Source: Candidatus Poseidoniales archaeon
GTDB taxonomy: Archaea; Thermoplasmatota; Poseidoniia; Poseidoniales; Poseidoniaceae
Reading direction: 5' to 3'
Assembly: GCA_028283345.1 (NCBI GenBank)
Contig: JAPOGE010000001.1
Span: 1-56,216 of the forward strand
Length of the DNA stretch: 56,216 nt
Part shown: positions 14,857-56,159 of the stretch, piece after piece
How positions within the stretch are numbered: position 1 is the first letter of the stretch
How the letters are laid out: every line of letters begins with the position of its first letter
Made by a program: the position numbers and the translations under genes
Notes under the pieces: model-generated
The model's database searches: none
What the model saw: the letters and a program-made list of their open reading frames with translations, nothing else
Told to the model about the DNA's origin: nothing

Positions 14857-14869
14857 TCCAATCTTCTCC

Positions 14870-18403: not shown

Positions 18404-18534
18404 ATGTATTTCTAAACCGGTGTAATAATTAAACCATCTAGTATTATTATTGACATTAACTATTTTCTCCAACACCAAGTGTTGACAATAACAGCCGACC
18501 CCCAATCTGGGTATTTGCGACAACCTCTCGATTC
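18404..18534 (-). promoter_or_regulatory. AT-rich promoter/operator region of the beta-oxidation operon
   Basis: On the minus strand, TTTAATTATTA lies about 27 nt upstream of the thiolase ATG (plus coordinates 18423-18435). Palindrome CAACACcaaGTGTTG at 18470-18484. Two direct copies of a 12-mer containing TTGACA (tATTGACATTAA at 18448-18459, tGTTGACAATAA at 18480-18491). Confidence 0.35.
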
Positions 18535-18984
18535 TCACAGGTGTAATGGCCGCACCGGGTCGTCAATCCATTCCCTGTCATTCTTCCAGTCATAATCCGG
18601 GCGGTCGACATACAACTCCAACTCATTGCCATCGGGGTCACGTATGTACAGGCTGTGGGTTATCACGTGGTCGCTCATTCCTTCTATGGGAATTTCCCTT
18701 TCCTCCAACTCTTTCTTGGCGCGAACCAGTTGCTCGGTGGTATCGCCGATGCACCACCCAATGTGATACAAGCCGATTCTGCGGCCTCGTGGTGGCCCCG
18801 GTGCATCGCCGACCTCGATTAACAGGAGTTCGTGATGGGTGCGTCCGCTGGTCAAGAGGGCGGCTCGACCGTGGAAGATCTCACCGTAGGTGGAAAGTCC
18901 CAGCACATCGGCATAGAATTGTACCGAAGTCGGTAGATCCTTGACATAAAGCACGACGTGGCCGAGATGTTTGATTCGCATCAA
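18535..18984 (-). CDS. VOC (glyoxalase / extradiol dioxygenase) family protein
   Basis: IKHLGHVVLYVKDLPTSVQFYADVLGL ... HHELLLIE ... LYHIGW ... SLYIRDPDGNELELY is the typical paired beta-alpha-beta-beta-beta module pattern. Confidence 0.85.
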   Translation of the reverse strand: MMRIKHLGHVVLYVKDLPTSVQFYADVLGLSTYGEIFHGRAALLTSGRTHHELLLIEVGDAPGPPRGRRIGLYHIGWCIGDTTEQLVRAKKELEEREIPIEGMSDHVITHSLYIRDPDGNELELYVDRPDYDWKNDREWIDDPVRPLHL

Positions 18985-19709: not shown

Positions 19710-19862
19710 TTGGGGGTGTCAGTATTAGGGAAATGAGCATTTTCATCATCCCACCACCCAAGGTTGAGTCGGAATTTACCTCCGTTGGGATTCGCTATCA
19801 GAAGGCACATCTACACCGTGGTGACCGAAACTTCTTTTTCACAGCGGTGGGGTTTGCCGACC

Positions 19863-22800: not shown

Positions 22801-24302
22801 AGATTCTCATGAATATCTCTTTCTCGGTCAGTGCCTATTATTCTCCGACCTTCGACCAAGGCCAATTTACCCTCCGAGTAACCGACTCATCGGGGATTGT
22901 GGTATTAGCAACCGGCCAGAATTGGTATCTCGACGCCGATATTCATCTGGCAGAATTCTCGATTACTCGCGCCGACGACCCAATGATGTCGCCTCTGCAC
23001 AACGACAGTTATGTCATCCAAGGCCAGCGCTTGTTATTCAGCGGCCGAGTGACCTATGTCGCAGGTGACCTTGTCCCTCCGGCATTCTCGCATGTGCTCT
23101 CCTTGCAGGTACCGCTAGATTCACCTCTGGTCATCAGCATCGATGAGAATGGCTATTTCTCCGCCACCATGGACGCCCTCGGCAGTGGCCTTTACCAAGT
23201 GAATCTCGATGTCATCATCGGCCCCGGTCAGGTAGTGCCCGCACCTTCGCCAATACGCATCCAGGTCGACGACCAGCCCCCCGCGCTGGTCGGCTCCGAG
23301 CCGAATTTCATCGCTGTCAATACCACCGATTTCATTCTCAAGGTGAATATCCAGGAAATCGGTGCCGGCCTGTCGGGCGATGACCTGGTGGTGCTCTGCC
23401 AGATAAGCCGCGGCATCGCCACCGCAGGTGAGCAATTCCAAGCCAATGCCACCTTACTGCTCTCCGGTCAAGTCTCAAGTTATCTGGCAAACCTTTCCTT
23501 CCCACCCATCACTGCCGAAGAGTTACTCCATTGCTGGTTGCAGGTCAGCGACCTTGCTGGCAACAACATCAGCGGCCAAGGCTCATCAGCCAGTTGGCCG
23601 CTGAGTATTCCCGCGGTCGAGACCCGCCCTGACCTCGTTGCCACGGATATCACCATCTCGCCGACTGAGCCGACCTTGGGGGTTACTACGATGGTAAATT
23701 TCACCATCATCAATATCGGCAACCAAACCGAGGAGATGTTCTGGGTCAGCCTGAGCACGGGCATCGACCATGATGGGAAAGTCCTGTTCGAGGAGGTCGC
23801 CAATACTTCGGCCCGGCTGGTGCACGGGAAGGCCTCGACCACCATCTCCCTGACCTGGAATCCGGATTGGGAAGGGGATTTCGACCTCATTATCACCGTC
23901 GATTCGACTGGGATTATTGCCGAGAGAGACGAAAATAACAGTTTCATCCTGCCGGTCTCGGTAGGCCCACCCGAGCAACCGGACGGATTCTTTTCCTCGC
24001 AGGTTGGACTATTCTTCGGTGGCGGGGCGGTATTCCTGCTGATGGCGGCGGGAATCTTCCTGGCGCTGAGACTGCGAGAGGAAGAGGGAGAATACGATGA
24101 CTGGGAAGACGAGAAGGAAGACCGCTTCGAGGGCGAGGAAGTGACTAACCTTGAGGTCTTCAACGATGATGTTGTTGGCGAGCAGGATTACCCGACCTGG
24201 CGCGAGGATGATGGCTACCAATGGCGAGAGTTACCCGATGGCACCAATCAGTGGTGGAATGAAGAAGGGCAATCTTGGATCGACTACGATGCCAATCAAT
24301 GA
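19863..24302 (+). CDS. Giant (about 1480 aa) cell-surface glycoprotein/adhesin with signal peptide, C-terminal TM anchor and acidic Trp-rich cytoplasmic tail
   Basis: Start placed at the ATG at 19863 (MRVRAVILSLIFLSSGIIFPALQ, signal-like). Dozens of N-x-S/T sequons. A DNRLRE-like segment (YTLYPLLKDWEEGQ...TWNN...NNGLLMTG). A CARDB-like segment (RPDLVATDITISPTEPTLGVTTMVNFTIINIGN). TM LFFGGGAVFLLMAAGIFLAL, then an E/D/W-rich tail of about 90 aa. Confidence 0.85.
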   Translation: MRVRAVILSLIFLSSGIIFPALQIRSVSAAQVSHFGNTGFPASVNVSFAAAGYDSTTNITIGQNAVVSSASFDVRGLPNANGESPFTIGVDIGDDGDLEWGWGGPGNGTFGNLDEFSNGWSQIGVNLSSGTNTTYSIRLPADAVVNSATVNFSTLSQITLSGNDVRDAYLHKPNPTWGNVTHKDCNYGASNLTRVGKSEWVNWHIYRGVYWFNLSRLPAVTVLDANLLFWVEDGVNHATSGQTVTATHTYTLYPLLKDWEEGQEDNLPVQAGPGVTWNNAIDNLTGSDYAWAIAGAGGTADRGSAVAAVTDSPANLEQNWLEFNGTNLTALVQAWVNGSTTNNGLLMTGDENTNKPDGSVLSIMGRNNATHGPRLVVTFEGSDDITAAFDLGNDGILEWNHSGNLSSGTISPDLAAVINSYLANATPSFTDAWGNDFVDIPLNITGNETLVLSNLNLSYDWNPTVATTPTGDLANEINQHLANLTADVTGNVSIFINVTSGSAGVVELSNLQINTGNRPPSIGAIGLPSETLVPDGQSYTVSLEVTCYQGLSNLSWVALTPQLQNSPTRPILFYSLANSSTWLNNPGGLVANLSGNWQELNSDTALMEWNLSADWAWPVEKEVVWLAQVGTIDALNSDRTSSATTNHERRVEIASFNLWDESAPSDGGPEVFTDEWVAGGDQLRVSGTVNFLNLSNHPLPGDVTVELENVSGNGSVTQNGVFSINTTAPNANHYDGFTISAYISGDYDATPAGFAVRKFRIDATAAGLLVHSPIGTRVIPEAQQLFNISIADTIGLDEGSLALRWWVESTNDGDGDGIAQASEYSISPLVRQGTSDFFHATYDDTNNMHGQNVSLFVDGYDLAGNSFAGGQAGLAFDLMHYISLVTAPTTLVNSTLEMPGGMALVPENTVWLNLTMNDENWLEDLEGIIVAFGQGDELIWSAGNASVLLTNNPEIIIESFTLAESPSPGGSFGVNGSGQEILMNISFSVSAYYSPTFDQGQFTLRVTDSSGIVVLATGQNWYLDADIHLAEFSITRADDPMMSPLHNDSYVIQGQRLLFSGRVTYVAGDLVPPAFSHVLSLQVPLDSPLVISIDENGYFSATMDALGSGLYQVNLDVIIGPGQVVPAPSPIRIQVDDQPPALVGSEPNFIAVNTTDFILKVNIQEIGAGLSGDDLVVLCQISRGIATAGEQFQANATLLLSGQVSSYLANLSFPPITAEELLHCWLQVSDLAGNNISGQGSSASWPLSIPAVETRPDLVATDITISPTEPTLGVTTMVNFTIINIGNQTEEMFWVSLSTGIDHDGKVLFEEVANTSARLVHGKASTTISLTWNPDWEGDFDLIITVDSTGIIAERDENNSFILPVSVGPPEQPDGFFSSQVGLFFGGGAVFLLMAAGIFLALRLREEEGEYDDWEDEKEDRFEGEEVTNLEVFNDDVVGEQDYPTWREDDGYQWRELPDGTNQWWNEEGQSWIDYDANQ

Positions 24303-26200: not shown

Positions 26201-29200
26201 CTAAAGTGGTCTAACGCCCAGTGGTTCACCTTGGGGACCACATAATCTGATGCCACTGTAATAATACGGGCAGGTACGACAGATCTCACCCTGCTCCTTT
26301 GGCAGTCGCTCGGGCTCATCATGGGGGTTGAGTTTCATCTCGACCATCCGTTCAAGTAATTGTGAGAAATCGAGTTTGGCCTGCGTCAGTTCGGCTTCGC
26401 TCATCACCACCATTCGCCCGCTGGCTGAAACTTGAATCGCCGGCGGCAACACATTGCGGCGCTCTTTCTGTGGCAGTCTGAACTGCGACCTTTCCAATAC
26501 CATGGTGTAGAGTGCCAATTGCAGACGGTGTTTGTCGAGCAGGTCCTGTTCGTGATCGCTCTGCGCCGCAGTCGAGAATGGGTCGGCGACAGGGTGTTGC
26601 AGTTCGTGGCCGTTGGCCGGGTCGGTTTCATCAAAGGGTTGGCCACAACCTTCGGTCTTCAGGTCGACCACCTGCAAGGTCGGCCCGCCATCACCATCAA
26701 CGGCCAGGGCCAGGTCGATTCGGCCATCGAATGTAACTTGGATTTCACCGATCTCAGCTAATTCCACCTCACCACCGACCGACCACCTTGTGATACTGCG
26801 GCCATCGGCTCCAACTGCAACGGTCAGATGGAAGGGTAGTTCGGTGCGTAATCCGACCACTTTCTGACCATCGAACTCCTCGCCGGAGCATAATTTACCC
26901 AACCGACCATCCTCCTGAATCTGTGCCAATACCGCGAGGCGTTGGCCGGTGCCTGCCCGGTCAGCAGAGGCGGGGAGTAATTCATCGAGCACCTGTTCGA
27001 TGACCGCCGGCTCAAGCAGTCTACTGGCTTGGGCTTGCAACCACTGGTCATCAAGACCCGATAGTTTTCCACCCTCGGCAGGATTGCCGATTCCGACCTC
27101 GACCAGACGGTGGAATAGCGAACCGAGGGTTGCGGCGTCGGGTAGTCCAGCCACACCAGCTATGGCACCAACCGCACCAACCGCACCAGCGATGACGCCC
27201 GCCGCATCAGCCGCTCCGGCTACACCAGCACCAGCACCAACACCAGCCACACCAGCACCAGCCTTGCCAACTCCACTGGATGTGGTGGCAGTGGCGGTGG
27301 CGGTTGCACCGGCCGCATCCTTGCCACCGTTGACTTCAGGCTGACCGAGCACCATCGGCTCACTCGACCAGCCGCGCACATCTCCCAACCACAGGCGACG
27401 ATTACAGGCAAAACTCAGGTCGAGGCGGTGCGGCGCGAGTGATAGTTTGAGGGAGCGTGGGGTCGGGCGTTTCTCCAATCCGACACTATTACCTTTTGCA
27501 CCAGCAGCGTTTTTCAGATGCTCAGCCATCGCCTTTCTGACCGATAGACGGCTTTCGAGTGAGGTGAAGGAACGGGGGTCATGAATAATCGTCAGATGTT
27601 TCAGGGGTGCCTTACCGAGATGAGGATCATCATAGAGTTCGATGGCATTGAGTGCCAACTTCCACGAGTCGGTGGCAATGGCCAAATCTTCACCTACCTG
27701 GTCATTCGCCATCCGCCAAGGCGACTCTTCGTCATCATCTTCGTGGGCCGAATATCGCAGAGCATCGAGCCACATCTCACCCATGCTCGGCAGGCGTGAA
27801 ACCGGTCGCTTGAGATGTAAGGTGCCATCGGCGGAACACGAGGAAGCAGCCGGTGCGCCGACCATTATCAGATGGTTCTCAACTCGGGTCAATGCGACAT
27901 AAAACAGGCGCCGACGCTCGGCCGCAGTCTGGGCATCGAGCAGGGCTTTGGCCAATTCCCAGGTACCGGAAAGCGGTGCTGGGACATGGCGCCAGGGCCG
28001 GGCATTGACGGCGAGCAGTTCGGGGGTGACGACCACACTGGACTGCTTTTCTATCGCCGAGGAATAATGACCCTCGTGGAAAAGTCCGGCCAGAACCACC
28101 ACCTTTGCCTCCAGCCCCTTGGCCGAATGAATCGTCATCACCCGCACCGCACCGGTCGGGGGAATCGCCATGCTCTCCAGCGCCCCCTCCTTCTGGTCGG
28201 CCAAGATTGAAACCGCATCGGCCAATAATTCAACATCACCACCGGCCTGCTGACGTAATTCCTCGAGCAGTTGGATGAACTGCTCACCATCCTGTAGTGA
28301 ATCCAAACCCGGGTGGACGAGTAGAATATCACCGGATTCAAGCGCGGTGGTCAGTGCGGTGATGATTTGGCCGCGGTTGGCCAACTGCTGTAGGCGCGCC
28401 AACAATCGGCGTTGCGGTTTTGTTGGGGCAATCTGCACCAAGCGCATCAACAGGTTGGCATTGGGCTTGACGCCTTTGCCATTGAACAATAATTCCAATT
28501 GTGAATCGCTCATTCCGACCAGACTGCCGCGGGCGAAAGCCGCGGCGTGATGGCGGTCGTGTGGTCGGGCGAGTATCTGCAGAAGATGATTCAATTCCCG
28601 CACCACCGGGCGCATGAACAGGGCACCCTGGCGGTCGGCCTGTGCCGGCACCCCCCAGGCCTGCAGGCGGCGCAGTAAATCAGTGACGTGCTTGCGGCGG
28701 GGCAGGAGAATCAGGATGTCCTCGGGCTTGACCGCGGGCACACCCGGGATTTCTCGCCATACCGCATCGCTACCCTCGCCGACCCCGCGCAATCGCAATG
28801 ACAGGCCATTGACCAGAGCGTGTAGGCGGGCGGCAATCATCTCATTTTCTCGCTCATGCGGCTTGGCTCGCTCGCCGATGGTGAAGGGGTCGAGATACTG
28901 GTCGAGGTCAGTACTGGCATCGCCTTCGCCGAATGGCACGGTGGCCAGCCATTCGATTTGGCCTACTCGTGGCTCTTCGCCGTCCTTGAGTATTGGTGGA
29001 TTGAGTGGCTGAGAGCGGGCGTGCCAAGTTCCCGGCAACAGGTCATGGCACGGGGCGAAGACATCGATGAACCAGTTATTCAGCGTCGCCAAGACATTTG
29101 GCGCGGTACGGAAATTTGTCGTCAGGTCGATATGGCCAAGGGCTCGTTCCCGCTTGATTTCGTCGGACAGAACCGTGTGCTCATCATCGCCGATATCGAT

Positions 29201-31297
29201 GCGAATCCATTCATCATCACTACCCTTCACCCCACCGCGTAATTCCGTCGCGGCGACGAATGTAGCACTCTCGCCACCACCCCCAGCCACCGGGCGTGGG
29301 TCGCGCATCTTGTCGGTGCGACGATAGCCAGCCAGACGGGTCTCGACATCATCCTCACGTTGATTGGCCTCTTTGATGGTGACGATGGCCCGCTCCATCA
29401 CCGTCACCTGTGCCTGGCGGAAGCGGTAGATGCTCTGTTTCACATCCCCCACCAGACAGATGGTCGGATCCCAAGGCCCTTTGGGGGCCTCCGGTTCCCC
29501 GGATTCGAGTTTACGCCTCCCCCACAACCGTGACAGCAGGCGGAATTGTTGCGGGTTGGTATCCTGATATTCATCGATGATGAAAGCCCGATAGCGTCGT
29601 CTCAGACGGGCGAGATGGTCGTAACGGCGTTCCAGGTCCTGGGTTGCCAATTCTCCGTCTTTTCCGGATGGGGCCAGATTCAGCGCCCGCAGGATGTGCT
29701 CATCCAACCATGGCCTGTCACCGAGATCATCCAGTTCATTCACCATCACCGTGGGATACCAATTTCGACATACGTCGGGACAGCGAGCCAACAATAGATC
29801 CTCGGCATATCTCTGCATATCACTGTGGTCGTAAACCCCTTCGCTCAGTTTGATGTGATTGAGAATCGACAGGACTCCGCGTTGGAGGGTGAATAGGTCA
29901 CCGAGCACCGCCGCCTGCAATTGTGAAGGCATTCGGGTATGGTCATCATCCATATGGCGCGGTAGAGGATTATCGAGGTCGGTGGGAAGATTTGCCCCGT
30001 GGTCCGGCAGGGAGACCAGGGGCAGTGTCGGGTGGAGCAGGAAGGCCATTTGCCCGAATTGGCGGGCGGCTCGTCCGGTGGTGGTAGCCAATAGGGCGCG
30101 GAACACCTGAGCCGCTGACTCGGCCGCATCTCTGGCGGATTGACGGTCGGCTTCTGCCACCGCCCCCCACGGTTTCAGCCCACTCAGCCAGCCACCTTGG
30201 CCGGTTCCGGTCGGCAATAGTGCATTTGGCAGGGCTTTGGGAACCGCTTTGTCATACTGGGTTTTGGACATAGAAGCCCACGAAACGTGGTGAATCCACT
30301 GGAGTTTCTCCCACTCATCCTCGGGAAGGTCTTCGGCTGCCATGGTGTTGAGATGGGTGATTCGGTTATCGTCACCAAGACTTTCATCCATTCCCAATTT
30401 CACCGATTGTGCTCGCAGAGCCTCCAACCAATCTTTCAGCGCCACTTGCAATTGTTCGGCAAATTCACTCAGGTCGCCGGCAATCCCCAACAACAAATCG
30501 CAGATTGCCTGCAGGGAGATTTCGTGGCTTGGTCCACCCGAGGCGGTACGCAATTGCCGCTCGGCCTCTTCGACGAATAGTGGCTGTTTGAGCAGAGCCA
30601 TCAGCATTCGCTCAGCCGCCCCGCGCCCGCCCAACAACCAGGCCAATCGATTGCGGGCCGACATGAATGCGGCCGGGTCCATCCCAATTCCCGCCAACGA
30701 GGCATGACCCTCATTCTGTAGGCGCCAGGCGGTGTTGATGGCACGGGCGAGCAGAACCGGACGTTGGGCATCGCTGACCAATTCACTCGAAGGGTCATCG
30801 CTGACCGTGGCGAGATGGGGTGAGACCAAGCCCGAAAGAAAACTGTCTATGGTGCCGATCGGCGCATCTTCGAGCAGGCTCTTCAACTGCTCGATATCAC
30901 CGGCTTTTCGCAGTCGCACATCGACGGTCGCATCTGGGGCATTAGGGTCGGGTGCTGAGCGCAGGTTGGAGAGTCGGTCGCGGATTCTCTGCCGCAGTTC
31001 ATCGGCGGCCTTGTTGGTGAAGGTTATCGCCACCACCTCAGAGGGAAGGAGAGCATGCCATTCCTCCATATCGCTGAGTTCAATCGCCGGTGCCCGAATC
31101 GCGCCCCGCCCCCGCAGTGGTACCCGCGGACCCTTCGGCAGTAATTCGGTCGCCCGTTGCCGGGCCTCGAGCAGGTGCTCGACATAGCGCATCGACATCA
31201 CCGTGGTCTTGCCGGTACCGGCACCGGCATCGACGGCCAGATGACGGTCGAGGTCGAGGCCTAAGACCTGACTGCGATTTGGCTTCAAAGCCATCAC
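26201..31297 (-). CDS. AddA/UvrD-like SF1 helicase fused to a C-terminal RecB-type (PD-(D/E)XK) nuclease; 1698 aa
   Basis: Helicase motifs DAGAGTGKT, ITFTNKAADEL, IIDEYQDTNPQQ, LVGDVKQSIYRFRQA, TTNFRT, VMTIHSAKGLEAKVVV and LFYVALTRVENHL. Nuclease motifs GRIDLALAV, VVDLKTEG and LQLALY, flanked by Cys residues (FACNRRLW ... CRTCPYYYSGIRLC). The start is the GTG at 31297 or the ATG at 31294, overlapping the upstream stop. Confidence 0.88.
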   Translation of the reverse strand: MMALKPNRSQVLGLDLDRHLAVDAGAGTGKTTVMSMRYVEHLLEARQRATELLPKGPRVPLRGRGAIRAPAIELSDMEEWHALLPSEVVAITFTNKAADELRQRIRDRLSNLRSAPDPNAPDATVDVRLRKAGDIEQLKSLLEDAPIGTIDSFLSGLVSPHLATVSDDPSSELVSDAQRPVLLARAINTAWRLQNEGHASLAGIGMDPAAFMSARNRLAWLLGGRGAAERMLMALLKQPLFVEEAERQLRTASGGPSHEISLQAICDLLLGIAGDLSEFAEQLQVALKDWLEALRAQSVKLGMDESLGDDNRITHLNTMAAEDLPEDEWEKLQWIHHVSWASMSKTQYDKAVPKALPNALLPTGTGQGGWLSGLKPWGAVAEADRQSARDAAESAAQVFRALLATTTGRAARQFGQMAFLLHPTLPLVSLPDHGANLPTDLDNPLPRHMDDDHTRMPSQLQAAVLGDLFTLQRGVLSILNHIKLSEGVYDHSDMQRYAEDLLLARCPDVCRNWYPTVMVNELDDLGDRPWLDEHILRALNLAPSGKDGELATQDLERRYDHLARLRRRYRAFIIDEYQDTNPQQFRLLSRLWGRRKLESGEPEAPKGPWDPTICLVGDVKQSIYRFRQAQVTVMERAIVTIKEANQREDDVETRLAGYRRTDKMRDPRPVAGGGGESATFVAATELRGGVKGSDDEWIRIDIGDDEHTVLSDEIKRERALGHIDLTTNFRTAPNVLATLNNWFIDVFAPCHDLLPGTWHARSQPLNPPILKDGEEPRVGQIEWLATVPFGEGDASTDLDQYLDPFTIGERAKPHERENEMIAARLHALVNGLSLRLRGVGEGSDAVWREIPGVPAVKPEDILILLPRRKHVTDLLRRLQAWGVPAQADRQGALFMRPVVRELNHLLQILARPHDRHHAAAFARGSLVGMSDSQLELLFNGKGVKPNANLLMRLVQIAPTKPQRRLLARLQQLANRGQIITALTTALESGDILLVHPGLDSLQDGEQFIQLLEELRQQAGGDVELLADAVSILADQKEGALESMAIPPTGAVRVMTIHSAKGLEAKVVVLAGLFHEGHYSSAIEKQSSVVVTPELLAVNARPWRHVPAPLSGTWELAKALLDAQTAAERRRLFYVALTRVENHLIMVGAPAASSCSADGTLHLKRPVSRLPSMGEMWLDALRYSAHEDDDEESPWRMANDQVGEDLAIATDSWKLALNAIELYDDPHLGKAPLKHLTIIHDPRSFTSLESRLSVRKAMAEHLKNAAGAKGNSVGLEKRPTPRSLKLSLAPHRLDLSFACNRRLWLGDVRGWSSEPMVLGQPEVNGGKDAAGATATATATTSSGVGKAGAGVAGVGAGAGVAGAADAAGVIAGAVGAVGAIAGVAGLPDAATLGSLFHRLVEVGIGNPAEGGKLSGLDDQWLQAQASRLLEPAVIEQVLDELLPASADRAGTGQRLAVLAQIQEDGRLGKLCSGEEFDGQKVVGLRTELPFHLTVAVGADGRSITRWSVGGEVELAEIGEIQVTFDGRIDLALAVDGDGGPTLQVVDLKTEGCGQPFDETDPANGHELQHPVADPFSTAAQSDHEQDLLDKHRLQLALYTMVLERSQFRLPQKERRNVLPPAIQVSASGRMVVMSEAELTQAKLDFSQLLERMVEMKLNPHDEPERLPKEQGEICRTCPYYYSGIRLCGPQGEPLGVRPL

Positions 31298-34200
31298 TTA
31301 TCACCTCCCAGTAATTCTCTGAGGCCACAGATAGTGCTGACATTGCAGTATTTACACGAATCCTCGGACGGGGTCGGTCGGCACTCTCCCTGCTCAGCGG
31401 CTCTGGCGACCTTTACCGCCACTGATAGCCGTTGGCGCATCCAGGCGCGGAACGGATTGCTTTTCGGCTCCGAACCTTCACCGGGTCGACGAAACAACAA
31501 GTCGGAAAAGAAGGTCATCTCACCGAGGCCATCGGTATTCACAAGACCACTTGCCGAGGCATCGAATTCGATATAGTGAGTAACCGTCTCACCGGCTTCG
31601 GTGATACCGATTCCGACCACTCGATCACCGGGATTCATCAATTCCCAGGCGCGGGCATAGAGGGCTAATTGCACCTCTTCATACAGTGATTTGCGGTGGC
31701 GTTTACCGCGGTCATCCGAGTCAGGTCCCTTGACCGTCTTCAAATCGCGAATCACCACATAGCGCTGGGCATTCCATTCCGTATCCATATCCAAATCAAG
31801 CGGGCAGACCTCTTCCTCACCATCCTTGTCGACCCAGCCCACGCCGGCATTATTCCACAATATCTCGACTCGGTCTATTCGTCCCCTGACCTTCAGTGAG
31901 CCGATTTCGGTCGCCGCCGCAGCACCATCGGCACCAGCCGCACCGTCCTTGGCCACCACCCCCTCGGTAGTTTTCGCACCAACCTGGCCAACCTTAGCCA
32001 AAATCGGCGGTAACATCGCCGAGCCCCCGGCTTCGGTCGCGGCTTCGGCCGCGGTTTCGGTCGCTACATCTGCCGCGGCCTCGCTAGCACTAGCAGACCT
32101 GTCCGACTCGGCTGCCTTGGCCACCAATTCCTCTTTGGCGGCTTTGGTGGCTTTGGCCGCGGCCTTGACCGCGGCCTTGTCATCGGGCGAAAACGGGACT
32201 GAAATCGTCACGTGGTCGTCATCGCCCTGCTCAAGCGGTGCCTCGAGGGCGATGATACAGGATTCGTTCAACCGCAGTTCGGCCGCAAGCAATCGCCCGA
32301 TCGAGCCATCGAGTTCCATCTTACGCGGTCTGCTGATGAAGGACTCGACCTCGGCTCGGCTCATCGCCAATAAATCGTGGCGGCGCTGGGCCGCGACCGC
32401 ATCACCTCGCCCCAACCATTGGGCTAAGCCGAGAACGATGCCGACTAGGTCGGACATCAGGGCTTTCTTGTCGGTGCCGCTCTTGGCAAGATTGGTTTTC
32501 TTAGGATTACTCGGCAAGTCTCGCACTTCGCCGACGGGAAAACCCAATTTCTCACAGATGAGATGCGCCAGGCTGTCGTGATAGAGTGTGCCGCGGGTAC
32601 GGGCATCGAGGTCTTCTCGAAGTTGCTCATCGACGGTAGCCCGCAGATGTCGCTCCAACCAACCCTTTCTCGGGCATTCCAACCAGGTGTTCAACCGGCT
32701 TGCCGACCATATCTGCGGCTTCAGTTTCATGTCACCATCATGACCGTGCCGCTGGTCGTAATTCGGCAGTTTCAGCGGTTTCGGATTCAGCGGGCGCGGG
32801 TCGGTGCCGGGGATGATGGTGCGAGGACCCGGGCGGCCGGTCAAAGCCGGCCATCTGTCGGCCGCTCGTAACTTCATTCGCTTAACCGGCCACTTCTTTC
32901 CCGGGTCCAATTTCTGTCGCTCCAGCGTCACCAATTGCTGATGCGCCGCAGAATCAACCCACAAATCATGCAGATCGGGGGTCTGTGGTTCGCGTGAATA
33001 TCTCTCGTGCATCATCTGCTCTTCCCACCCGAGTGCCAGCGCAGGAGCCGACAACGGCGAGGAATCCACCTTACGACCCTCGGCCAACGCCAACCCGGTA
33101 TTCTGCCGGTGATGCCGCACCCTCGTGCCATTGATGTCACAGCGCACCCCGTCAGCGGTGATGGTGACCGCGGCCGGCCTTGGTGTCAGATGGGAACTCC
33201 GGGCATTATCATCCTCTACCATATCCCAGCACCGGGCATGGTCGCCATCATCCCAATCATCGGGCGAGAGGAAAATCGGTGGTTCAGCCATAGATGACCT
33301 TTCATCGATTGTCAGATTGGCCAGCCATTCGGCCAACGGCGCACTGGGTTGATTATCCGGGTCACTGGAGGGGTCGAGCACGACCACCGTCCTACCCGCA
33401 TTGAGCAGGTGACGCAGGAAGTGACGGGCATCGCAAAGCGGCGCATCCGGGCGCAGGATACCCAATTCCAACTTGGCCTCGGCATCTAGCCAGGGCACTT
33501 TGACACAACCCATCGACCACTCCTTGGCAGAGAGCCCGCAGATGATGACCAAGTCGGCCTTACAGCCCAGACCGGCACCGGGAGTAAGCAACTCGACCTG
33601 AGATTCACTGCGCTTTTCGGGGATTGAAGACTCGGCTACCATCATCGCCAGTTCCTCGACCCACCCGGGGCCATTCACCTGACCCTGATAGCCGGCGGCG
33701 GCGAGCATCTCGCCCCCGCGGCGTGATAATTCCATCAGCCTCTGTAATCCAGCAACGCTTCCACCACTGCCACCACCATCGACCAGACTCTCCCACTCGA
33801 TGATACCCATCAGCGATGATAGCCAAGCCTCGCCATCGTCCAGACCAGAAGAAGATTCGACCAGGGGTAAGGTTCTCTGGCTCACCGCGCCCTTCATAAG
33901 GCCAAATTCATCGAGTGCCTGTAGGTCTTCTTCCCCGAGCAGGGGACGGATGAATTCAGCGAGATTTCGTACCCACCACTGGGTCTCCTCCAGGGCGATG
34001 AGAAGTTTTTCAGCACCGACCATCAACGGGTCGGGGCGCCAGGTATCCAAAGCGTGTAACCAGCGCCCCAAGGCTCCGCCACCACCGAGGATATGGAAGG
34101 AACGGGCGATATCCTCAAGGATGCGGGCATGGCCACGGGAACTGAACTTGGTCTTGCCAGCCACACCGGCTGCACCTCCAGCAGCCCCACCGCCAGCCGC

Positions 34201-35583
34201 ACCACCAACGGTACCAGCCACACCGGGATGCTCTCCACCGGCCAACCAATCGGGCACGAAGGGCAGGGTCTTCTGCACCGCCAAAGCGCGCAGTGACTGC
34301 ATCGACCAGGCCTCTTGACCGTGTGCGAGTTTTGCCAATGCCATGACCCAATGAATCGCCGGATTGGCCAACAGGGGTTGTGCCGGGGCCGATAGCGAAT
34401 GCGCCCGCTCAGCCAGGGCCTCGACCCAATTCGAGTGCCGAGACGCCAGTCCGGCATCGGCGATGATTACCGAATTACCTCCCGATGCCACAGCCAGACC
34501 GGCACCAGTCGTACCGGCCGCATCAGCAGCCGCAGCCGCATGCGCCTCAAAGGAGTCCAGAAGTGCGAGTGCGGCATCGAAATCATGCCCGGCACGTCCG
34601 AGGTTGACCCGGTGCACCGACGATTTCCCATAAGCCCCATCCTCCATGTGCCACGGCATCTGTTCAGGGGCGCGCCATGGTCGGCGGCGTGCGGGCCCTA
34701 CGGTTTCCCCGGTTTCCCCGGCTTGACCGACAAGGTCTGCGAATACCTCCGGCAGGGAATCGACACTGTTGCAGACCTCGATATCGAACAACCAGGCACC
34801 GTGCTCACCCAAGCGGAACTTGCCGCCGTGTCCGATTTGATGCAAGGGGACGAAGCGTGCCAAAGCGATGAGGAATTGCCGCCGCAACCACGACAGTGAA
34901 GGCGGCAGATCGAGAACGACGATGCCGTCGATATTGCCTAGGGTGAACGGGGTCTGGTCGGCATCGGCCCAGCGATTCAACTCGGCGACCACGTGGGAGA
35001 GACGACGATCGGGATGGAGCCGCTCGACCTCATCTTCGAGGTTTCCCAAAACCTTGGAGAACTCGACCACCCCAGGGTCACCATCCCATGAATAATCGGG
35101 ATTCTCCTCGGCCAGGGCCGAATGCAATTGCGATAATCTCTCGCTCTTTGAGTGTGGCCAGACGCGGTCGGCGATGGGATGTATCACCGGGAAGGCGAAC
35201 TCGGCCGCCGCCTTTTGACAGGCGGCGTGTACCAATAGGCTGGTAGTGCCATCATCAGACAACATTCTCGGCAGTCTCAGGTCGACATGGATGGCCTCGA
35301 TCAAACGGTCGATGGTCGCCAACAGCGACGGGTCGATCCCGGCAGGTTGCGCCCGGCCAATCTCGGTGACACTCTGTCTTCGGGCAGCATCGGTGGCATG
35401 GATGACCAGCAGGCGGGGTTTTCCTGCGCCTGAACCTTCTTGGGTGGTCTGGGTGGTCTGGGTAAAGTGGTCGAACAACCATTGCGGCAGGCCTATCCCT
35501 GCGGGAATGTGTTCCATGGAAATAGCCGACTCAGAGGGAGGAATGTCCTCATCATTCGTTGCCGCTATCGCCACCTGCACCAC
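31294..35583 (-). CDS. AddB-like partner subunit with a C-terminal Cas4/AddB-type 4-Cys PD-(D/E)XK nuclease; 1429 aa
   Basis: No Walker A seen. The C-terminus has SASRLNTWLECPRKGWLERHL, GTLYH, GRIDRVE, VIRDLKT, QLALYARA and CKYCNVSTIC (C...C-x2-C-x5-C). Long Ala/Gly/Glu-rich insertions are present. Confidence 0.78.
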   Translation of the reverse strand: MVQVAIAATNDEDIPPSESAISMEHIPAGIGLPQWLFDHFTQTTQTTQEGSGAGKPRLLVIHATDAARRQSVTEIGRAQPAGIDPSLLATIDRLIEAIHVDLRLPRMLSDDGTTSLLVHAACQKAAAEFAFPVIHPIADRVWPHSKSERLSQLHSALAEENPDYSWDGDPGVVEFSKVLGNLEDEVERLHPDRRLSHVVAELNRWADADQTPFTLGNIDGIVVLDLPPSLSWLRRQFLIALARFVPLHQIGHGGKFRLGEHGAWLFDIEVCNSVDSLPEVFADLVGQAGETGETVGPARRRPWRAPEQMPWHMEDGAYGKSSVHRVNLGRAGHDFDAALALLDSFEAHAAAAADAAGTTGAGLAVASGGNSVIIADAGLASRHSNWVEALAERAHSLSAPAQPLLANPAIHWVMALAKLAHGQEAWSMQSLRALAVQKTLPFVPDWLAGGEHPGVAGTVGGAAGGGAAGGAAGVAGKTKFSSRGHARILEDIARSFHILGGGGALGRWLHALDTWRPDPLMVGAEKLLIALEETQWWVRNLAEFIRPLLGEEDLQALDEFGLMKGAVSQRTLPLVESSSGLDDGEAWLSSLMGIIEWESLVDGGGSGGSVAGLQRLMELSRRGGEMLAAAGYQGQVNGPGWVEELAMMVAESSIPEKRSESQVELLTPGAGLGCKADLVIICGLSAKEWSMGCVKVPWLDAEAKLELGILRPDAPLCDARHFLRHLLNAGRTVVVLDPSSDPDNQPSAPLAEWLANLTIDERSSMAEPPIFLSPDDWDDGDHARCWDMVEDDNARSSHLTPRPAAVTITADGVRCDINGTRVRHHRQNTGLALAEGRKVDSSPLSAPALALGWEEQMMHERYSREPQTPDLHDLWVDSAAHQQLVTLERQKLDPGKKWPVKRMKLRAADRWPALTGRPGPRTIIPGTDPRPLNPKPLKLPNYDQRHGHDGDMKLKPQIWSASRLNTWLECPRKGWLERHLRATVDEQLREDLDARTRGTLYHDSLAHLICEKLGFPVGEVRDLPSNPKKTNLAKSGTDKKALMSDLVGIVLGLAQWLGRGDAVAAQRRHDLLAMSRAEVESFISRPRKMELDGSIGRLLAAELRLNESCIIALEAPLEQGDDDHVTISVPFSPDDKAAVKAAAKATKAAKEELVAKAAESDRSASASEAAADVATETAAEAATEAGGSAMLPPILAKVGQVGAKTTEGVVAKDGAAGADGAAAATEIGSLKVRGRIDRVEILWNNAGVGWVDKDGEEEVCPLDLDMDTEWNAQRYVVIRDLKTVKGPDSDDRGKRHRKSLYEEVQLALYARAWELMNPGDRVVGIGITEAGETVTHYIEFDASASGLVNTDGLGEMTFFSDLLFRRPGEGSEPKSNPFRAWMRQRLSVAVKVARAAEQGECRPTPSEDSCKYCNVSTICGLRELLGGDK

Positions 35584-35882: not shown

Positions 35883-36077
35883 GCCCCGCCATGGTAGCGT
35901 CGCCTTGATAAGGGGCGGAAGTCACTATTGAAAAGCCGGAAGGCGACAGGAAGAGATAACTGAAGGTAATAACTACGACTGATACTAGGCAAATGATTAC
36001 AATTGCAACTTTTTTTCCATCATTTGCTCACCCACATATCTCAGCCAGATATTCCGTCGCCCGGTGGAGCCGTTACC

Positions 36078-37148
36078 ATGAGTGATAAAAAAGATACTGA
36101 CCGAACAGAAAGTGAAGAAGCCTGCGATGAGTGCGGATATATCCGTGCCGCGAACGAAAATAACGAGGTTGAATGCCCGCAATGCGGCCTACAGCCTTGT
36201 GGAGAAGAACTCGATATCCACCATCCGGGAAATACCCAGGGCGAAGAGGCGCACATGCATGCCGCCGGAAATAACCGAGTGAGAAACCGTAACCGAATGC
36301 CGGGTACCTACATCGACCGTAACGACATTCGCCGCAACGGCCAAGCCGGCCGAGCGACACGCGATTCACTGTACCGAATACTGCGCGAGCATGTGCGGAT
36401 GAATTGCACTCGCCCGACCTTCGCCGACGATTGCATCGGCCAGATTCGCAGCCTGGGGCTGGGTCGCGAGATTGAGAACATCCTCATCGGGATTTTCCGT
36501 GCCTGCCTGAACGAGGCCGAAAACGAGGCCGATGTGGGGCCACTGCCGCGCAACGAAATGCGCTTCATGACCGACCGCGACGCCGCTTACCGCCAACGCG
36601 TCTGTGTCGTCGCCGGCCTGCGTGCCGCCGCGGCTTTCGGGCTATGCGAAGGAATCCTCTCAGCCCGGTATGCCCAGACTTGGGGTCTTGACCTTGGCGA
36701 TTGCCGACGCATGACCAAGAAGTTCATCTCCCGAATCAAGCGCATGATGGTGGCACAATATGGTGATGAGGACGAAGCCCGTCGTATCGAAGCAATACAA
36801 CAACGACGCCGCACCCAGATGCACCGGGACGGTGAATTGTCGGCACAGGTCTGTCAATTGCGTGAGACCCTGACCAATACCGAGCTCGACTACCTCACCA
36901 TTCGCGCCCTGATGCGTCAGGTCTCGGGTTGGATTCTCCAATTGGGCGAACCGGGCTGTGAGGCCGTATTCGCCAATGTCCGCGCCGACATGCTGGTGGC
37001 GATTCTCATCCGTCGCGCCTTGGCCGGCCAGCGCATAAGGAATTTCTTTAGCATCACCGCAGAAGGCCTGGGGCTGTCTGCGGGCGGAGTGACCCAGCGA
37101 GCCGGACGGCTGTCTCGTGAGTTCGACCGCCACCTCGGCCACGACTAG
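36078..37148 (+). CDS. Zinc-ribbon protein, possibly a divergent TFB/TFIIB-family paralog
   Basis: Start at the ATG at 36078 (MSDKKDTDRTESEEA). CDECGY-x14-CPQCG zinc ribbon. Two helical segments have a cyclin-repeat-like pattern (IGQIRSLGLGREIENILIGIFRACLNE...VCVVAGLRAAAAFGL; a second repeat ends ...GLSAGGVTQRAGRLSREF). Similarity to canonical TFB is weak. Confidence 0.55.
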   Translation: MSDKKDTDRTESEEACDECGYIRAANENNEVECPQCGLQPCGEELDIHHPGNTQGEEAHMHAAGNNRVRNRNRMPGTYIDRNDIRRNGQAGRATRDSLYRILREHVRMNCTRPTFADDCIGQIRSLGLGREIENILIGIFRACLNEAENEADVGPLPRNEMRFMTDRDAAYRQRVCVVAGLRAAAAFGLCEGILSARYAQTWGLDLGDCRRMTKKFISRIKRMMVAQYGDEDEARRIEAIQQRRRTQMHRDGELSAQVCQLRETLTNTELDYLTIRALMRQVSGWILQLGEPGCEAVFANVRADMLVAILIRRALAGQRIRNFFSITAEGLGLSAGGVTQRAGRLSREFDRHLGHD

Positions 37149-37242: not shown

Positions 37243-38154
37243 ATGCGTAGGTTACTCTGTCTGGCAGTCGCCCTGCTCCTGTTCATCCCTTCACCTGCGG
37301 TTTCAGCCGGCCATAGCACCGATAATGACGCTATCACCGGCGGAGGGATTTTCGGCGGTGGCAAGATTTCTGCCAACGCCTCGGGAGCGATCGAAATACC
37401 GTTTTCCGACCTGCCCGGCCTAGCCGAGGATTTCACCGCCACCTGGTGCGATAACTGCGTATATGTCGAGCATGCTCTGCATAATGTTTCACAGGATACC
37501 GGGACCGAGGTACTCTACTTCCACCGTAATAACGACATCGAAGACCCGTTCGGCAGTGATAGCGGAGATTCGTGGTGGCAGAGGCGGTACGGCTCAGGCA
37601 TCCCTCCCACGGTGGTATTCAATGGTGATGATCTGCGCGCTGGTTCACTGCCCGGAGAGCAGAGCCTCGATGATGAGTTCACCGCCAAGGTGGTACGGGA
37701 CTTCGACCTCGGCAACGGCGACAGTCAGTTCATCTGGGCACTGGAGAATAACAACACCACCGGGGCCTTTGTCTGGTCATTACAATATGATTCGACCCAC
37801 GCCACATTCGCTGAGGCGGCCGGAATTCAATCCTGGCTATTCGTGCTCGAGGATAGTTCCTACTTCCCCGACGGCGGTAATGGACTTGAGGACTATCCCA
37901 ATGTCGTTCTCGACGTCATCGACCTCGGCACCGAATCTGAGGGTTTGTACAACCTCATCCTACCCAGTGCCTATGATGGCGACGACATCACCCTGATGCT
38001 CATCCATGAATTGATTCCCCTGCCACCGAGCACGGACAATGACACCGAGGGGTCTTCGGAAGATTCGGGTTTTCTTCCCTCGATCACCTTGATGGCGGCC
38101 CTCTCAGTGGTCGCAATGGCGGCGATTTATCGGCCTTCGCGCAGTGAGCCCTAG
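37243..38154 (+). CDS. Secreted thioredoxin-like (WCDNC) protein with a PGF-CTERM-like C-terminal anchor
   Basis: Signal peptide MRRLLCLAVALLLFIPSPAVSA and a TATWCDNCVYVEHAL CxxC motif. The C-terminus has an S/T/D/E linker, then SGFLPSITLMAALSVVAMAAIYRPSR. Confidence 0.65.
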   Translation: MRRLLCLAVALLLFIPSPAVSAGHSTDNDAITGGGIFGGGKISANASGAIEIPFSDLPGLAEDFTATWCDNCVYVEHALHNVSQDTGTEVLYFHRNNDIEDPFGSDSGDSWWQRRYGSGIPPTVVFNGDDLRAGSLPGEQSLDDEFTAKVVRDFDLGNGDSQFIWALENNNTTGAFVWSLQYDSTHATFAEAAGIQSWLFVLEDSSYFPDGGNGLEDYPNVVLDVIDLGTESEGLYNLILPSAYDGDDITLMLIHELIPLPPSTDNDTEGSSEDSGFLPSITLMAALSVVAMAAIYRPSRSEP

Positions 38155-38158
38155 AGAC

Positions 38159-41100
38159 TTAGGCGACGAGGTCAGCATGGTCATCACCGACATCGGCATA
38201 TGATAATTCCATATCCCAGGTCATCTGCAAATCATGCGGCAGTTCGGGCCGGATTCGCCGATAAGCCCACCACCACGGCGCTTCGCCGCGGCGGCCGAAG
38301 TGTACTTGCATGGGTCGCAGTAGCCGGGCAATCTGTGCCAGGGCATCCTCGGCCGGTGCCATCACCCGAGCCCATATCTCAAGTTGATTTTCTTCACCAC
38401 CCACATTGCCGGCGGCTACCACTTCGTCTTCGACATCGGCGGCTTCATCGGCTTCATCGGCTTCATCGGGTTCAGCAGGTTCAGCAGGTTCAGCAGGTTC
38501 AGCAGGTTCAGCAGGTTCAGCAGGTTCAGCAGGTTCAGCAGGTTCAGCCGCATCGGCATCATCATCGGCACCATCGGTTCTCTCCCATCCCAGAACCGTC
38601 GCTAATCGGCGGATGAATTCCTTTTCGCCATCATTGCGGATATTCATCTGGAAGCCGCAACCGGCAAATTGCAACAGCCCACCTCGGTGGCGAGGAATGG
38701 TCATCTCCTCCTGTAGCGGCAGGGCTTGCAGGATGCGACTGAGCAGAGGAAAGAGGGTGGTCCAGCGCGGCGTCCTGATTCCGACTGGTCCAGCCTGCAG
38801 GTTGCCGGCGAATTCCAACTCTCGAAACGCCTCCTCGTTGCGGGCTAATTCTCCGAGCCGCTCAACCCTCTCGGCGAGTTCGGCCGGATCACCCAATTCA
38901 CCCAATTCACCCAGTTCACCTAATTCAGCCGGATCACCCAGTTCGGCCGGATCACCCAGTTCACCTAATTCAGCCGGATTACCCAGTTCGGCCGGATCAC
39001 CCAGTTCAGCGGGTTCAACCGCTTGAAATTCCGGAACCGGGTCACCATAGGGGGGGTTAGCAACGACATCGACGACAATTTCGACATCGGCATCATCTTC
39101 AACCTCAATATCAACTCGAACTTCGGGTCTCTGCGCCTGCTGTCTTCTCTCTCTATCCCTCTCCCTTGGGCCCAGGTAGTTCTGGATCGCATGGTCCAGT
39201 CGAACTTCGATATTTCTGATGGCATCGTCAGCATCGCCGCCAGCATCGCCAGCATCGCCAGCATCGCCAGCATCGCCAGCATTGCCGAGTCGCATCTGGA
39301 AATCGGGCCAGCGCTCGGCATTGACGCGCCAATAATCACGGATTCGCCCGAGATTCTGTCGCTGTTGCCGATAGTATTGCCGCCATTCGGGATTGCCGCG
39401 CAGAGGATGGTCATGATCGTGCCGGCCACCGCGGTGACGCCGTTCAGCGTACTCGGGATTGTCGGCTTCAAACAGGAATTGTTGCAATGAATCGATACGT
39501 TGCGCACTGCCGATATCATCCAACAGACTGAGAACGACCGAGGCGATAACATCACCGAGCGGCATTTTTCGCTTCCCTTGTTGGCCGGTATGAATACAGA
39601 GGTTGCGGCCACGCTCGCCATTGCTCTGGTCGGTCGGGTGCGCCCACCCCAGAATACTGAATGGCGCATTATGCGCGCCTTCTCGGGTATCGACCGCATA
39701 GGCACAACCACTACGGCCACGAATCATGATCTTTCTATCCTGCATACGCACTCGGTCACGATTGGCGTGACAGATATCACGCAGTAGACCTAAAGCACGA
39801 ACCTCGGGAGCGGACAAGCTCAGTTCGGGGCGGGTGTTCTTCCAGTTCCAGCGCAGTGCCATGAACAGGTTATGGTGGCGGCTTTCGGGGGGCGATAAAG
39901 CCCAACTTGTCAGCAGTGCCCACAGGCGGGGGTCGTGCGGCAAGGTCGTGCGAATCCAATGGCCATCCTGATTCAGCACCCGCAGTAAGATTGCCCCCTT
40001 TCTGGTACAGAATGATGAGCGGGAATCATCCATTAATTCGACCCCTTCTTCGCCGACTTTACGCCAGCGTTCAACCCATGGTTCATCCCCGGTCAAACCA
40101 TCCTCCCAATCTTCCGCGTGGATATGAAAGCCGGTGATGGACGAGTAGCCGCCGTAGCGGTGGGCATGAAGATGGTGATAGCGGTGGTGGAGGTCTGAAG
40201 GCTGTCGTGAAATCGGCCTTATCTTCTCCTCTGGAAGGCCGGGTAGGCTCCAGGACAACCAGCGCATCACTCCGGATAGCGGATTGCGACTCAGCGACAA
40301 ATCGAAGCCCTGGGCTTTCGCCAACATGATGTGGCGAAATGCTGTATGACTGGCATTGATCAAGCGCGCCATCGTCGTCGCTTGGCGCTCGGAGAATTTC
40401 AAATTCTCATCATCGATCAAGACCGACATCGTCGGAATCAGTTTCGGCCAATCGAATCTGGTCGGCGCAATACCGCCTTTCGGTCGGCGAGTCATAGCTC
40501 GTCTGAGTGCTTCGACCGGGAAATTTCCCGGCAAAGCCTGGCCATCGAGAAAAATCATTCTGCCGGTGATGGAAAGTAATGTGCCATCGTGTAATTCCAC
40601 CCCTCTCTGCAGAACTCGCAATTCATGTTTGGTGGCCGGTCGTGAAAGTGGGAGATTAGCGAAATACTGCTTCCACTCCACCAGTAATCTCCTCGCCTGT
40701 GCCGGTCTGACCAATCGTGAATCGGCGGGGGCTCCCAAGGGTGCTTTCCCGTCAGCACCGGTCCTATCGGCACCGCTGGAAGCACCGGTCGTGAGCCGGT
40801 CAGACTTGCCAGTGCCGGAAGTACCGGCGGCCTCGCCATCATCGAGGAGCGCCCAGCGCAGGTCATTGGTCGGGGAAAATTCTTCGATTATTCGCTGTAT
40901 TTTGGCACTTTTTGGCTTGTCATACAGTGGCTGAAAGAGATTACAGATTCTGGTATTTGCCCACCGGTTCGGCATTTTCCAGACAATTTCACCGAGAATT
41001 CCCTCGGTCACAACTTTACATCTATCGCACCAATTACTCCAGTTGACCCGCTTTCTCGGGGTGGCATGAATGGGCAGGACGGATTGGTTGGCTTGGCCCG

Positions 41101-53695: not shown

Positions 53696-53750
53696 ACTTC
53701 ACTCACCGGGCATCAACGCGCATCGCTGGCGTCATATAACCTACGCGATT

Positions 53751-56149: not shown

Positions 56150-56159
56150 GGGGGGGGGG
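56150..56159. repeat. G10 homopolymer tract
   Basis: Direct reading (gag ggggggggg a). Non-coding context near the window end. Confidence 0.9.

Follow-up and report, generated by a model that had tools for sequence, protein, structure and literature searches.

The window analysed here is a 56,216-nucleotide stretch of contig JAPOGE010000001.1 of a Candidatus Poseidoniales archaeon, and the subject of this work is a pair of long minus-strand genes that it contains, named B and A in their 5' to 3' order. Gene B encodes an AddB-like protein, and gene A encodes an AddA-like helicase-nuclease. The preliminary description of this DNA, made from the letters alone, had outlined the two open reading frames (ORFs) together with the GTGATG string at which they overlap; the boundaries, the lengths and the overlap were all confirmed. 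The features of the locus are listed in Table 1.

Table 1. Features of the B-A locus. Alignment A1 contains eight sequences (B of the window plus its homologs P0121-P0127); alignment A2 contains 64 sequences of the A family, with 33-98% identity to A of the window. Residue numbers are amino acids (aa) of the respective protein; AF2 and pLDDT are explained in the text.
Feature	Position	Strand	Basis and remarks
Gene B, AddB-like subunit	31294..35583	(-)	1429 aa from GTG at 35583; ORF call, homologs P0121-P0127, alignment A1
Putative SF1-helicase-like region, inactivated, B aa 22-960	32704..35520	(-)	Profile search, weak AF2 model and Foldseek
Gly/Ala insert, B aa 455-476	34156..34221	(-)	Contains the chance match AAGVAGKT
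Block most like bacterial AddB, B aa 657-733	33385..33615	(-)	VELLTP..ADLVIICGLS..EWS...PWLD...LGILRPD...ARH; hhalign to P0269
RecB/Cas4-type nuclease, B aa 960-1429	31297..32706	(-)	PDDEXK_1 3.2e-19; TIGR03623 and cas4 tail matches
Ala/Glu/Lys-rich insert in nuclease, B aa ~1135-1230	31894..32181	(-)	Alignment A1; tandem DNA repeats 31922-32179
B nuclease cysteines	C970 32674-32676; C1410 31354-31356; C1413 31345-31347; C1419 31327-31329	(-)	C...CX2CX5C
B/A junction	31292..31308	(-)	GGAGG 31304-31308; A start GTG 31295-31297 or ATG 31292-31294; B stop TGA 31294-31296
Gene A, AddA-like helicase-nuclease	26201..31297	(-)	1698 aa; ORF call, Pfam, NCBIfam, PDB match
SF1A (UvrD/PcrA-type) motor, A aa 1-1150	27848..31297	(-)	Near-invariant columns in alignment A2; Pfam UvrD-helicase, UvrD_C, AAA_19
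RecB/Cas4-type nuclease, A aa 1285-1698	26204..27445	(-)	PDDEXK_1 3.8e-9, alignment, AF2, Foldseek, hhalign
Gly/Ala/Val/Thr insert, A aa 1322-1379	27161..27334	(-)	pLDDT < 50; tandem repeats 27147-27304
A nuclease cysteines	C1298 27404-27406; C1673 26279-26281; C1676 26270-26272; C1686 26240-26242	(-)	C...CX2CX9C

Read on the coding (minus) strand, the junction between the genes is GGAGGTGATAAGTGATGG. The TGA of B overlaps both candidate starts of A, GTG and ATG, and a GGAGG is found 6-9 nt 5' of the start of A. This combination of overlap and GGAGG implies that B and A would be translationally coupled. The same 4-bp overlap is found in the related loci L003, L005 and L090, as well as in a bacterial addB-addA pair (L088), and the genes of the window are adjacent and co-oriented, as in addB-addA operons. 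The start of B is ambiguous, as translation may begin either at the GTG at 35583 or at an ATG at 35517 (M23), where two homologs start. No tRNA or Rfam RNA elements were detected in the window. The GC content is 0.58-0.61 over the pair versus 0.55-0.58 in the flanks, and Ala/Gly-rich inserts plausibly account for this small rise.

The N-terminal part of A is a helicase motor of superfamily 1A (SF1A). Motifs I (GAGTGKT, residues 25-31), Ia (FT..A), II (DEYQD, 575-579), III (VGDxKQSIYRFRQA, 616-629), V (TIH.AKGLE, 1055-1062) and VI (YVALTR, 1133-1138) are invariant or nearly so in alignment A2, and the same is true of the RecB-nuclease motifs. Every motif string quoted in the preliminary description for either subunit was indeed found in the translations, at alignment columns that vary little or not at all within the families. 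In Pfam, A matches UvrD-helicase (2.5e-33), UvrD_C (5.5e-14) and PDDEXK_1 (3.8e-9). The closest sequence match of A in the PDB is Bacillus AddA (3u44_A, 2e-10), followed by UvrD1, AdnB, PcrA and RecB. An SF1A motor with intact motifs, followed by a C-terminal RecB-type nuclease, is the layout of AddA; judged by its motifs and matches, A is homologous to AddA/RecB-type proteins.

Conserved cysteines are also present in the helicase region of A: C506 (64/64 sequences) and C510 (58/64), at about nt 29766-29782, lie within ARCPxxCR, and C614 (64/64; 29456-29458) lies within TIC, directly before motif III. Bacillus AddA has no cysteine at the latter site.

The nuclease domain of A carries H1396, GRIDL (D1528), VDLKT (D1545, K1547) and QLALY (Q1593, Y1597). 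An AlphaFold2 (AF2) model of the domain, built with 64 sequences, had a predicted local distance difference test score (pLDDT) of 87 and a predicted template modelling score (pTM) of 0.83, with disorder confined to the low-complexity insert. When the model was compared with PDB structures using Foldseek, the top matches were the Cas4-family nuclease ACE1 (1e-5), Dna2 (1.1e-5), RecB and AddB nucleases, and the nuclease of AddA itself came behind them (1e-3). ACE1, Dna2 and AddB carry an iron-sulfur (Fe-S) cluster; RecB is not known to do so. Four cysteines bracket the domain in A, and their conservation (64/64 for C1298, 63/64 for C1673 and for C1676, and 53/64 for C1686, where the alignment has nine gaps) is far above chance, as A holds just 12 cysteines in 1698 residues.

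The C-terminal domain of B is likewise a RecB-family nuclease with its catalytic residues in place, as in AddB: H1002, GRIDRV (D1237), RDLKT (D1280, K1282) and QLALY (Q1305, Y1309) are invariant, and so are C970, C1410, C1413 and C1419 in the eight sequences of alignment A1 (8/8). As a sequence signature, the four-cysteine bracket of B has the CX2CX5C spacing of AddB. When the C-terminal domain of A was aligned with the nuclease of B using hhalign, the probability was 92% and all four cysteines were paired: FACNRRLW with WLECPRKGW, and CRTCPYYYSGIRLC of A with CKYC----NVSTIC of B. GRIDL was paired with GRIDR, and QLALY with QLALY. The two cysteine sets are therefore positionally equivalent, the difference being a 4-residue insertion in A (CX2CX9C versus CX2CX5C). 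The earlier remark that cysteines flank the nucleases of both subunits is thus borne out residue for residue.

One cysteine before the nuclease fold and three after it constitute, at the level of sequence, the 'iron staple' signature, which both subunits bear. The nucleases of Dna2, Cas4 and ACE1 are bracketed in the same manner, with canonical CX2CX5C spacing; B shares this spacing with them, while A has CX2CX9C. Their architecture differs from that of A, as the nuclease of Dna2 is N-terminal to a superfamily 1B (SF1B) helicase, and Cas4 and ACE1 are small stand-alone nucleases. Because both nuclease domains carry the four-cysteine signature, the complex is predicted to hold two Fe-S clusters instead of one.

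The region of B that precedes the nuclease was less tractable. The sole Pfam match in B is PDDEXK_1, with no domain before residue ~1270, and neither a conserved Walker A motif (P-loop) nor any other helicase motif is found in alignment A1. The only match of B to [AG]x4GK[ST] is AAGVAGKT at residue 471, inside a non-conserved low-complexity insert, and is missing in 6 of the 7 homologs; the lack of a P-loop proposed in the preliminary description holds accordingly. A PDB search with the single B sequence gave no match, and the eight-sequence profile gave two matches at chance level (E about 1-2). A word-indexed homology search with the B alignment returned the same 7 proteins and nothing further, probably because low-complexity words swamped the candidates.

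A profile of B residues 22-960 (939 aa) was then compared with 1.84 billion representative proteins in a search that used no word index (E <= 0.001). The search recovered 183 proteins, most of them from the family of B itself (full-length proteins of ~1160-1375 aa, or fragments), together with proteins of ~920-1060 aa with E values of 2e-6 to 6e-5. All seven of the outside-family matches that were scanned fit the NCBIfam model addB_alphas (TIGR02786), and five (P0259, P0266, P0267, P0269 and P0270) exceed its equivalog cut-off. When the A1 profile was aligned with the alpha-type AddB protein P0269, a probability of 90.5% was obtained (E 1.4e-6; 77 columns; 30% identity), and the matching block may be a relic of the helicase motif V/VI region.

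An AF2 model of the same region is weak (pLDDT 55, pTM 0.38), as just eight sequences were admissible. Its 49 best PDB matches in Foldseek are without exception chains of AddB, RecC, AdnA/B, AddA, RecB or UvrD/PcrA/Rep, with AddB first (3u44_B, 1.2e-5), RecC third (7mr4_C, 1.6e-5) and AdnA sixth, at TM scores of about 0.2. We consider these matches consistent support, not proof, for a likeness to AddB. Profile and model evidence taken together, B is best described as a remote but specific AddB homolog.

The large size of the subunits had been attributed to low-complexity insertions. Such insertions do lie where they had been placed, with coordinates now refined (Table 1), and are encoded by short imperfect tandem DNA repeats, but as an explanation for the size of A they were rejected. 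The 58-aa insert at residues 1322-1379 is the sole window-specific insert of at least 6 aa when A is compared with 63 homologs, and it is private to close relatives. Length is a trait of the whole family, with a median of 1635 aa (range, 1537-1698) reached without such inserts. The surplus of ~400 aa (about 400-470) relative to Bacillus AddA is made of conserved sequence and, as indicated by the positions of the motifs in both proteins, is sited between motifs Ia and II, between motifs III and V, and before the nuclease. In turn, B is usually 1190-1260 aa long across the order, and the 1429 aa of B in the window reflect clade-specific low-complexity inserts, mainly that at residues ~1135-1230, which varies among close relatives and is missing in P0124-P0126.

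Homologs of A number more than 548; they measure 1590-1690 aa almost without exception and come from Poseidoniales, Poseidoniaceae and Thalassarchaeaceae (Marine Group II). The window itself contains archaeal markers, namely MCM (51518-53695) and a GatE-type protein (49245-51521). The source of the homologs and the presence of these markers therefore uphold the archaeal context described previously. In a scan with one genome per GTDB species, relatives of B were detected in at least 231 genomes. The best 80 of these 231 loci were fetched; all are of Poseidoniales type, and in 77 of them B is directly followed by A. The remaining three stop at contig edges. For the comparison of neighbours, loci of Thalassarchaeaceae and of Poseidoniaceae were used, together with that on a 2.03-Mb contig and those of two more distant relatives; the genes shared encode Pth2, a beta-eliminating lyase, DUF4430/DUF6580 proteins, GatE, a convergent class-I methyltransferase and peptidase M20.

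Order-wide synteny and a near-background GC content indicate that the pair is an old, vertically inherited core module of Poseidoniales. Both observations led us to reject recent horizontal transfer or residence in a defence island. The suggestion in the preliminary description that the pair might be a horizontally acquired or a defence-type module is thus, as regards a recent acquisition or a defence island, at odds with its occurrence in at least 231 species genomes, amid conserved housekeeping neighbours and with a GC content only slightly raised.

Two observations on individual loci can be added. A distant relative with a GC content of 73%, unusually high for the group, was found in a 17.5-kb Logan contig (SRR12463106; L089); it retains the order Pth2, B, A, peptidase M20 and both cysteine sets. 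Three B-A loci of Poseidoniales type are filed under bacterial bin names (Deltaproteobacteria AH-558-G13, L021; Yoonia sp., L031; Verrucomicrobiales, L066). They are probably mis-binned or contaminated, as their identity levels fit those of archaeal loci.

Among the database matches inspected, none is annotated as AddAB. B is labelled 'hypothetical protein', a name that recurs among the matches next to 'UvrD-helicase domain-containing protein' and 'exonuclease V beta subunit'. We found no paper naming the pair in Marine Group II/Poseidoniales, the two main comparative-genomics studies included, and searches combining these groups with Mre11/Rad50, UvrD, AddA or RecB gave nothing relevant.

Among known enzymes, the pair can be compared with AddAB of the Bacillus subtilis type (TIGR02785/TIGR02773; structures 3U44, 3U4Q and 4CEH-4CEJ). 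The order is the same, addB followed by addA. A joins an SF1A motor to a RecB-type nuclease, and AddA is its closest solved relative in sequence; B joins a putative inactivated helicase-like body to a RecB-type nuclease with C...CX2CX5C, and AddB is its top fold match. Differences are also found. At a median of 1635 aa, members of the A family exceed chain 3u44_A (1232 aa). Bacillus AddB keeps a Walker A motif, which Poseidoniales B lacks. In the archaeal host, RadA would take the place of RecA as recombinase. Lastly, the nuclease of A bears four cysteines as well, while in Bacillus AddAB the cluster is held by AddB only (PMC3378879).

Alpha-proteobacterial AddAB (TIGR02784/TIGR02786) is the sole outside family recovered with the N-terminal profile of B. 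Alpha-type AddB lacks Walker A, as Poseidoniales B does, and its gene shares the 4-bp overlap with addA. The alpha-type subunits are smaller (about 1000-1060 aa and about 1180 aa). A true alpha-type addB-addA pair was found in a Logan contig (ERR6050753, 1323-8041; L088), with a TIGR02786 score of 1066 bits. Neither subunit of this pair has the CxxC...C set that both Poseidoniales subunits carry; even among AddB proteins, therefore, some are without the iron staple.

An archaeal AddAB-like pair of canonical size is also known to us from a plasmid. A tblastn search of plasmids with A gave a single match, in Haladaptatus sp. QDMS2 (NZ_CP119793.1, 210206-217386), where a PD-(D/E)XK protein (WP_276275247, 1116 aa) is followed by a UvrD-nuclease (WP_276275246, 1275 aa). 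The nuclease of the former aligns to that of B, CxxC...C included. The AddA-like protein is nearer to bacterial AddA than A of the window is (331 versus 127 bits with addA_Gpos) and has no cysteine staple in its C-terminal nuclease region. The Haladaptatus pair lies directly downstream of BREX-5 pglZ and a MutH/Sau3AI-family endonuclease gene, so that, on a plasmid and beside PglZ, it looks like a recent mobile or defence-linked import.

Helicase-nuclease fusions of the UvrD-Cas4-like class constitute the largest branch of pfam12705 in the analysis of Hudaiberdiev et al. 2017 (PMC5704561) and are found in bacteria and mesophilic archaea. As in this class, A unites a UvrD-type superfamily 1 helicase and a four-cysteine, Cas4-like PD-(D/E)XK nuclease in one polypeptide. 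UvrD-Cas4-like genes, however, are described as occurring on their own or in linkage with Type III restriction-modification or Dcm/Vsr genes (PMC5704561), while A is always paired, and by arrangement coupled, with an AddB-like partner in a housekeeping context. The likeness is thus one of architecture.

Altogether, we favour the view that B and A make up a highly divergent AddAB-type helicase-nuclease, a vertically inherited core component of Poseidoniales, and we give this reading a probability of about three in four. By analogy, the two subunits would form a heterodimer. The assignment made in the preliminary description is thereby retained, on account of the Pfam matches and of 3u44_A in the case of A, and of TIGR02786, the Foldseek matches and the cysteine-stapled nuclease in the case of B.

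Several observations weigh against this assignment. The NCBIfam scores of A are far below the equivalog cut-offs (127.5 bits versus 707.65 for addA_Gpos, TIGR02785; 104.8 versus 860.75 for addA_alphas, TIGR02784), and B matches none of the addB models directly (TIGR02773/02786), its only hit being TIGR03623 at 22 bits. Scores of this kind place the pair outside the curated families, as a divergent sister group and not as an equivalog. Beyond the nuclease, the link between B and AddB consists of a short stretch (about 77-190 residues, E 1e-6 to 6e-5) and a low-confidence model, which RecC and AdnA fit nearly as well as AddB. The CX2CX9C of A departs from the canonical CX2CX5C spacing, and Fe-S binding by either domain is read from sequence only. 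The RadA partner and the Chi sequence considered below are purely our inference.

If the pair is indeed an AddAB-type enzyme, a mechanism can be sketched by homology to Bacillus AddAB. The complex would bind an end of double-stranded DNA, and the single active motor, in A, would draw the 3'-terminated strand through the complex and unwind the duplex. The C-terminal nuclease of A would cleave the 3' strand and that of B the 5' strand, if strand polarity is as in the homologous enzyme. The presumed inactivated helicase-like body of B would scaffold the complex and would probably scan the 3' strand for a lineage-specific Chi-like sequence, recognition of which would turn off cutting of that strand. 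The product would be a 3' single-stranded tail for the recombinase, here archaeal RadA. Like RecBCD and AddAB, the complex would incidentally degrade linear foreign DNA.

In the textbook view, archaeal end resection is carried out by Mre11-Rad50 and HerA-NurA, and AddAB and RecBCD are regarded as bacterial. A doubtful extension is that AddAB might be the main system for end resection at double-strand breaks in Poseidoniales, feeding RadA and replacing or dominating Mre11-Rad50/HerA-NurA. In this speculation the pair would represent a 'double iron-staple' class, both of whose nucleases need an Fe-S cluster; the staple might be an ancestral state lost in bacterial AddA/RecB or, alternatively, the outcome of replacement by a Cas4-type domain.

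A different interpretation is that the pair serves chiefly in defence against viruses and plasmids: A would be a UvrD-Cas4-like fusion and B an accessory nuclease, and invading DNA would be degraded without a role in repair. Four-cysteine fusions of this class are indeed described from bacteria as well as mesophilic archaea, frequently in the context of defence (PMC5704561); the nuclease model of A is closest to ACE1, an Argonaute-associated Cas4-family protein; the haloarchaeal pair adjoins BREX-5 PglZ and a MutH-family endonuclease on a plasmid; and PADLOC detects GajB-type matches in A. The PADLOC matches of A are, however, generic for UvrD helicases (<=70 bits), and in B PADLOC finds no defence family beyond the Cas4 tail. 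Neither restriction-modification nor Dcm/Vsr nor other defence genes lie beside the pair in the window, and in Poseidoniaceae and Thalassarchaeaceae, as in a more distant lineage of high GC content, the pair occupies the same site amid housekeeping genes. Near-universal, single-copy presence suits a housekeeping role better. We thus consider a primary defence function unlikely, bearing in mind that defence and repair are not mutually exclusive, as RecBCD illustrates.

Even less probable is a RecBC-like enzyme, with B corresponding to RecC, which scans for Chi and whose nuclease fold is dead, and A to RecB. The rank of RecC 7mr4_C in the Foldseek search with the N-terminal model of B (third, E 1.6e-5) would fit this idea, and so would the recB model, which comes close behind addA_Gpos on A (124 versus 127 bits). 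The nuclease-like domain of RecC is catalytically dead, whereas the nuclease of B invariantly retains all catalytic motifs and the cysteine staple. At the sequence level, moreover, the relatives of the N-terminal region of B are AddB proteins alone, not RecC, and no RecD-like SF1B gene lies beside the pair in any locus examined. Identity with RecBCD was rejected on the intact motifs and the lack of a RecD-like gene in the loci examined. An AdnAB-like enzyme with two motors, both subunits hydrolysing ATP and translocating, was dismissed with hardly any reservation: AdnA and AdnB chains appear among the Foldseek and PDB sequence matches, but B has no Pfam helicase domain and no conserved Walker A or other helicase motif, its only P-loop-like string lying in a non-conserved insert.

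To our knowledge, archaeal addAB genes have been mentioned only in passing, as products of horizontal transfer. The occurrence of AddAB in an archaeon, presented as unusual in the preliminary description, has precedents in the Haladaptatus plasmid and in the transfer of addAB 'even into the archaea' for which Cromie 2009 is cited in PMC2887965. What appears to be new, as read from the sequences, is an order-wide archaeal AddAB with an extremely divergent AddB, an enlarged AddA and the iron-staple signature on both nucleases. The novelty of the staple concerns AddAB-type pairs and not helicase-nucleases at large, as the cysteine-stapled UvrD-Cas4-like class is known (PMC5704561).

A divergent AddAB-type pair would thus be carried, as a syntenic core module, by a whole order of globally abundant, uncultured marine archaea; Poseidoniales are among the most abundant archaea of the surface ocean. 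If functional, the pair would offer a natural example of resection machinery of bacterial type that cooperates with archaeal RadA, and Poseidoniales would be a lineage in which to seek an archaeal Chi sequence. A second Fe-S nuclease in AddAB would also touch on two questions: whether RecB-family nucleases had the iron staple ancestrally, and how much iron DNA repair costs in surface waters poor in this metal. A practical consequence is that an annotation is supplied for several hundred 'hypothetical' genes in marine metagenomes.

Other genes of the window deserve mention. Divergently from B, a 381-aa protein with an N-terminal CxxC...CxxC zinc ribbon and no Pfam match is encoded at 36003-37148 (+). 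Its homolog in L005, at the same place beside B, has a weak Zn_Ribbon_TF (TFB-like) match, and the protein could be a local transcription factor. It seems to evolve quickly, as tblastn at 1e-5 finds it in 10 of 86 loci only. The next gene (37243-38154, +) encodes a 303-aa protein with a signal-peptide-like N-terminus, a thioredoxin-like WCDNC and no Pfam match. By gene order, this protein may correspond to an uncharacterised family of ~290-350 aa found just upstream of the pair, in varying orientation, in L001, L003, L005 and the distant L089. A 1023-aa ORF without any Pfam match follows at 38159-41230 (-).

On the other side of the pair, a predicted surface protein of 1512 aa (19764-24302, +) carries a signal sequence, a single CARDB domain and N-x-S/T sequons by the dozen, together with a C-terminal transmembrane helix and an acidic tail. 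A fatty-acid beta-oxidation cluster (10770-18538, -) comprises genes for a thiolase, a 3-hydroxyacyl-CoA dehydrogenase/enoyl-CoA hydratase fusion, an acyl-CoA dehydrogenase, an alpha/beta hydrolase and an ACBP-short-chain dehydrogenase fusion. The GC content, otherwise about 0.55, drops to 0.42-0.46 in the rightmost part of the window (53000-56216), around a gene of the prolyl-oligopeptidase family (54116-55939), and this part may stem from a different source.

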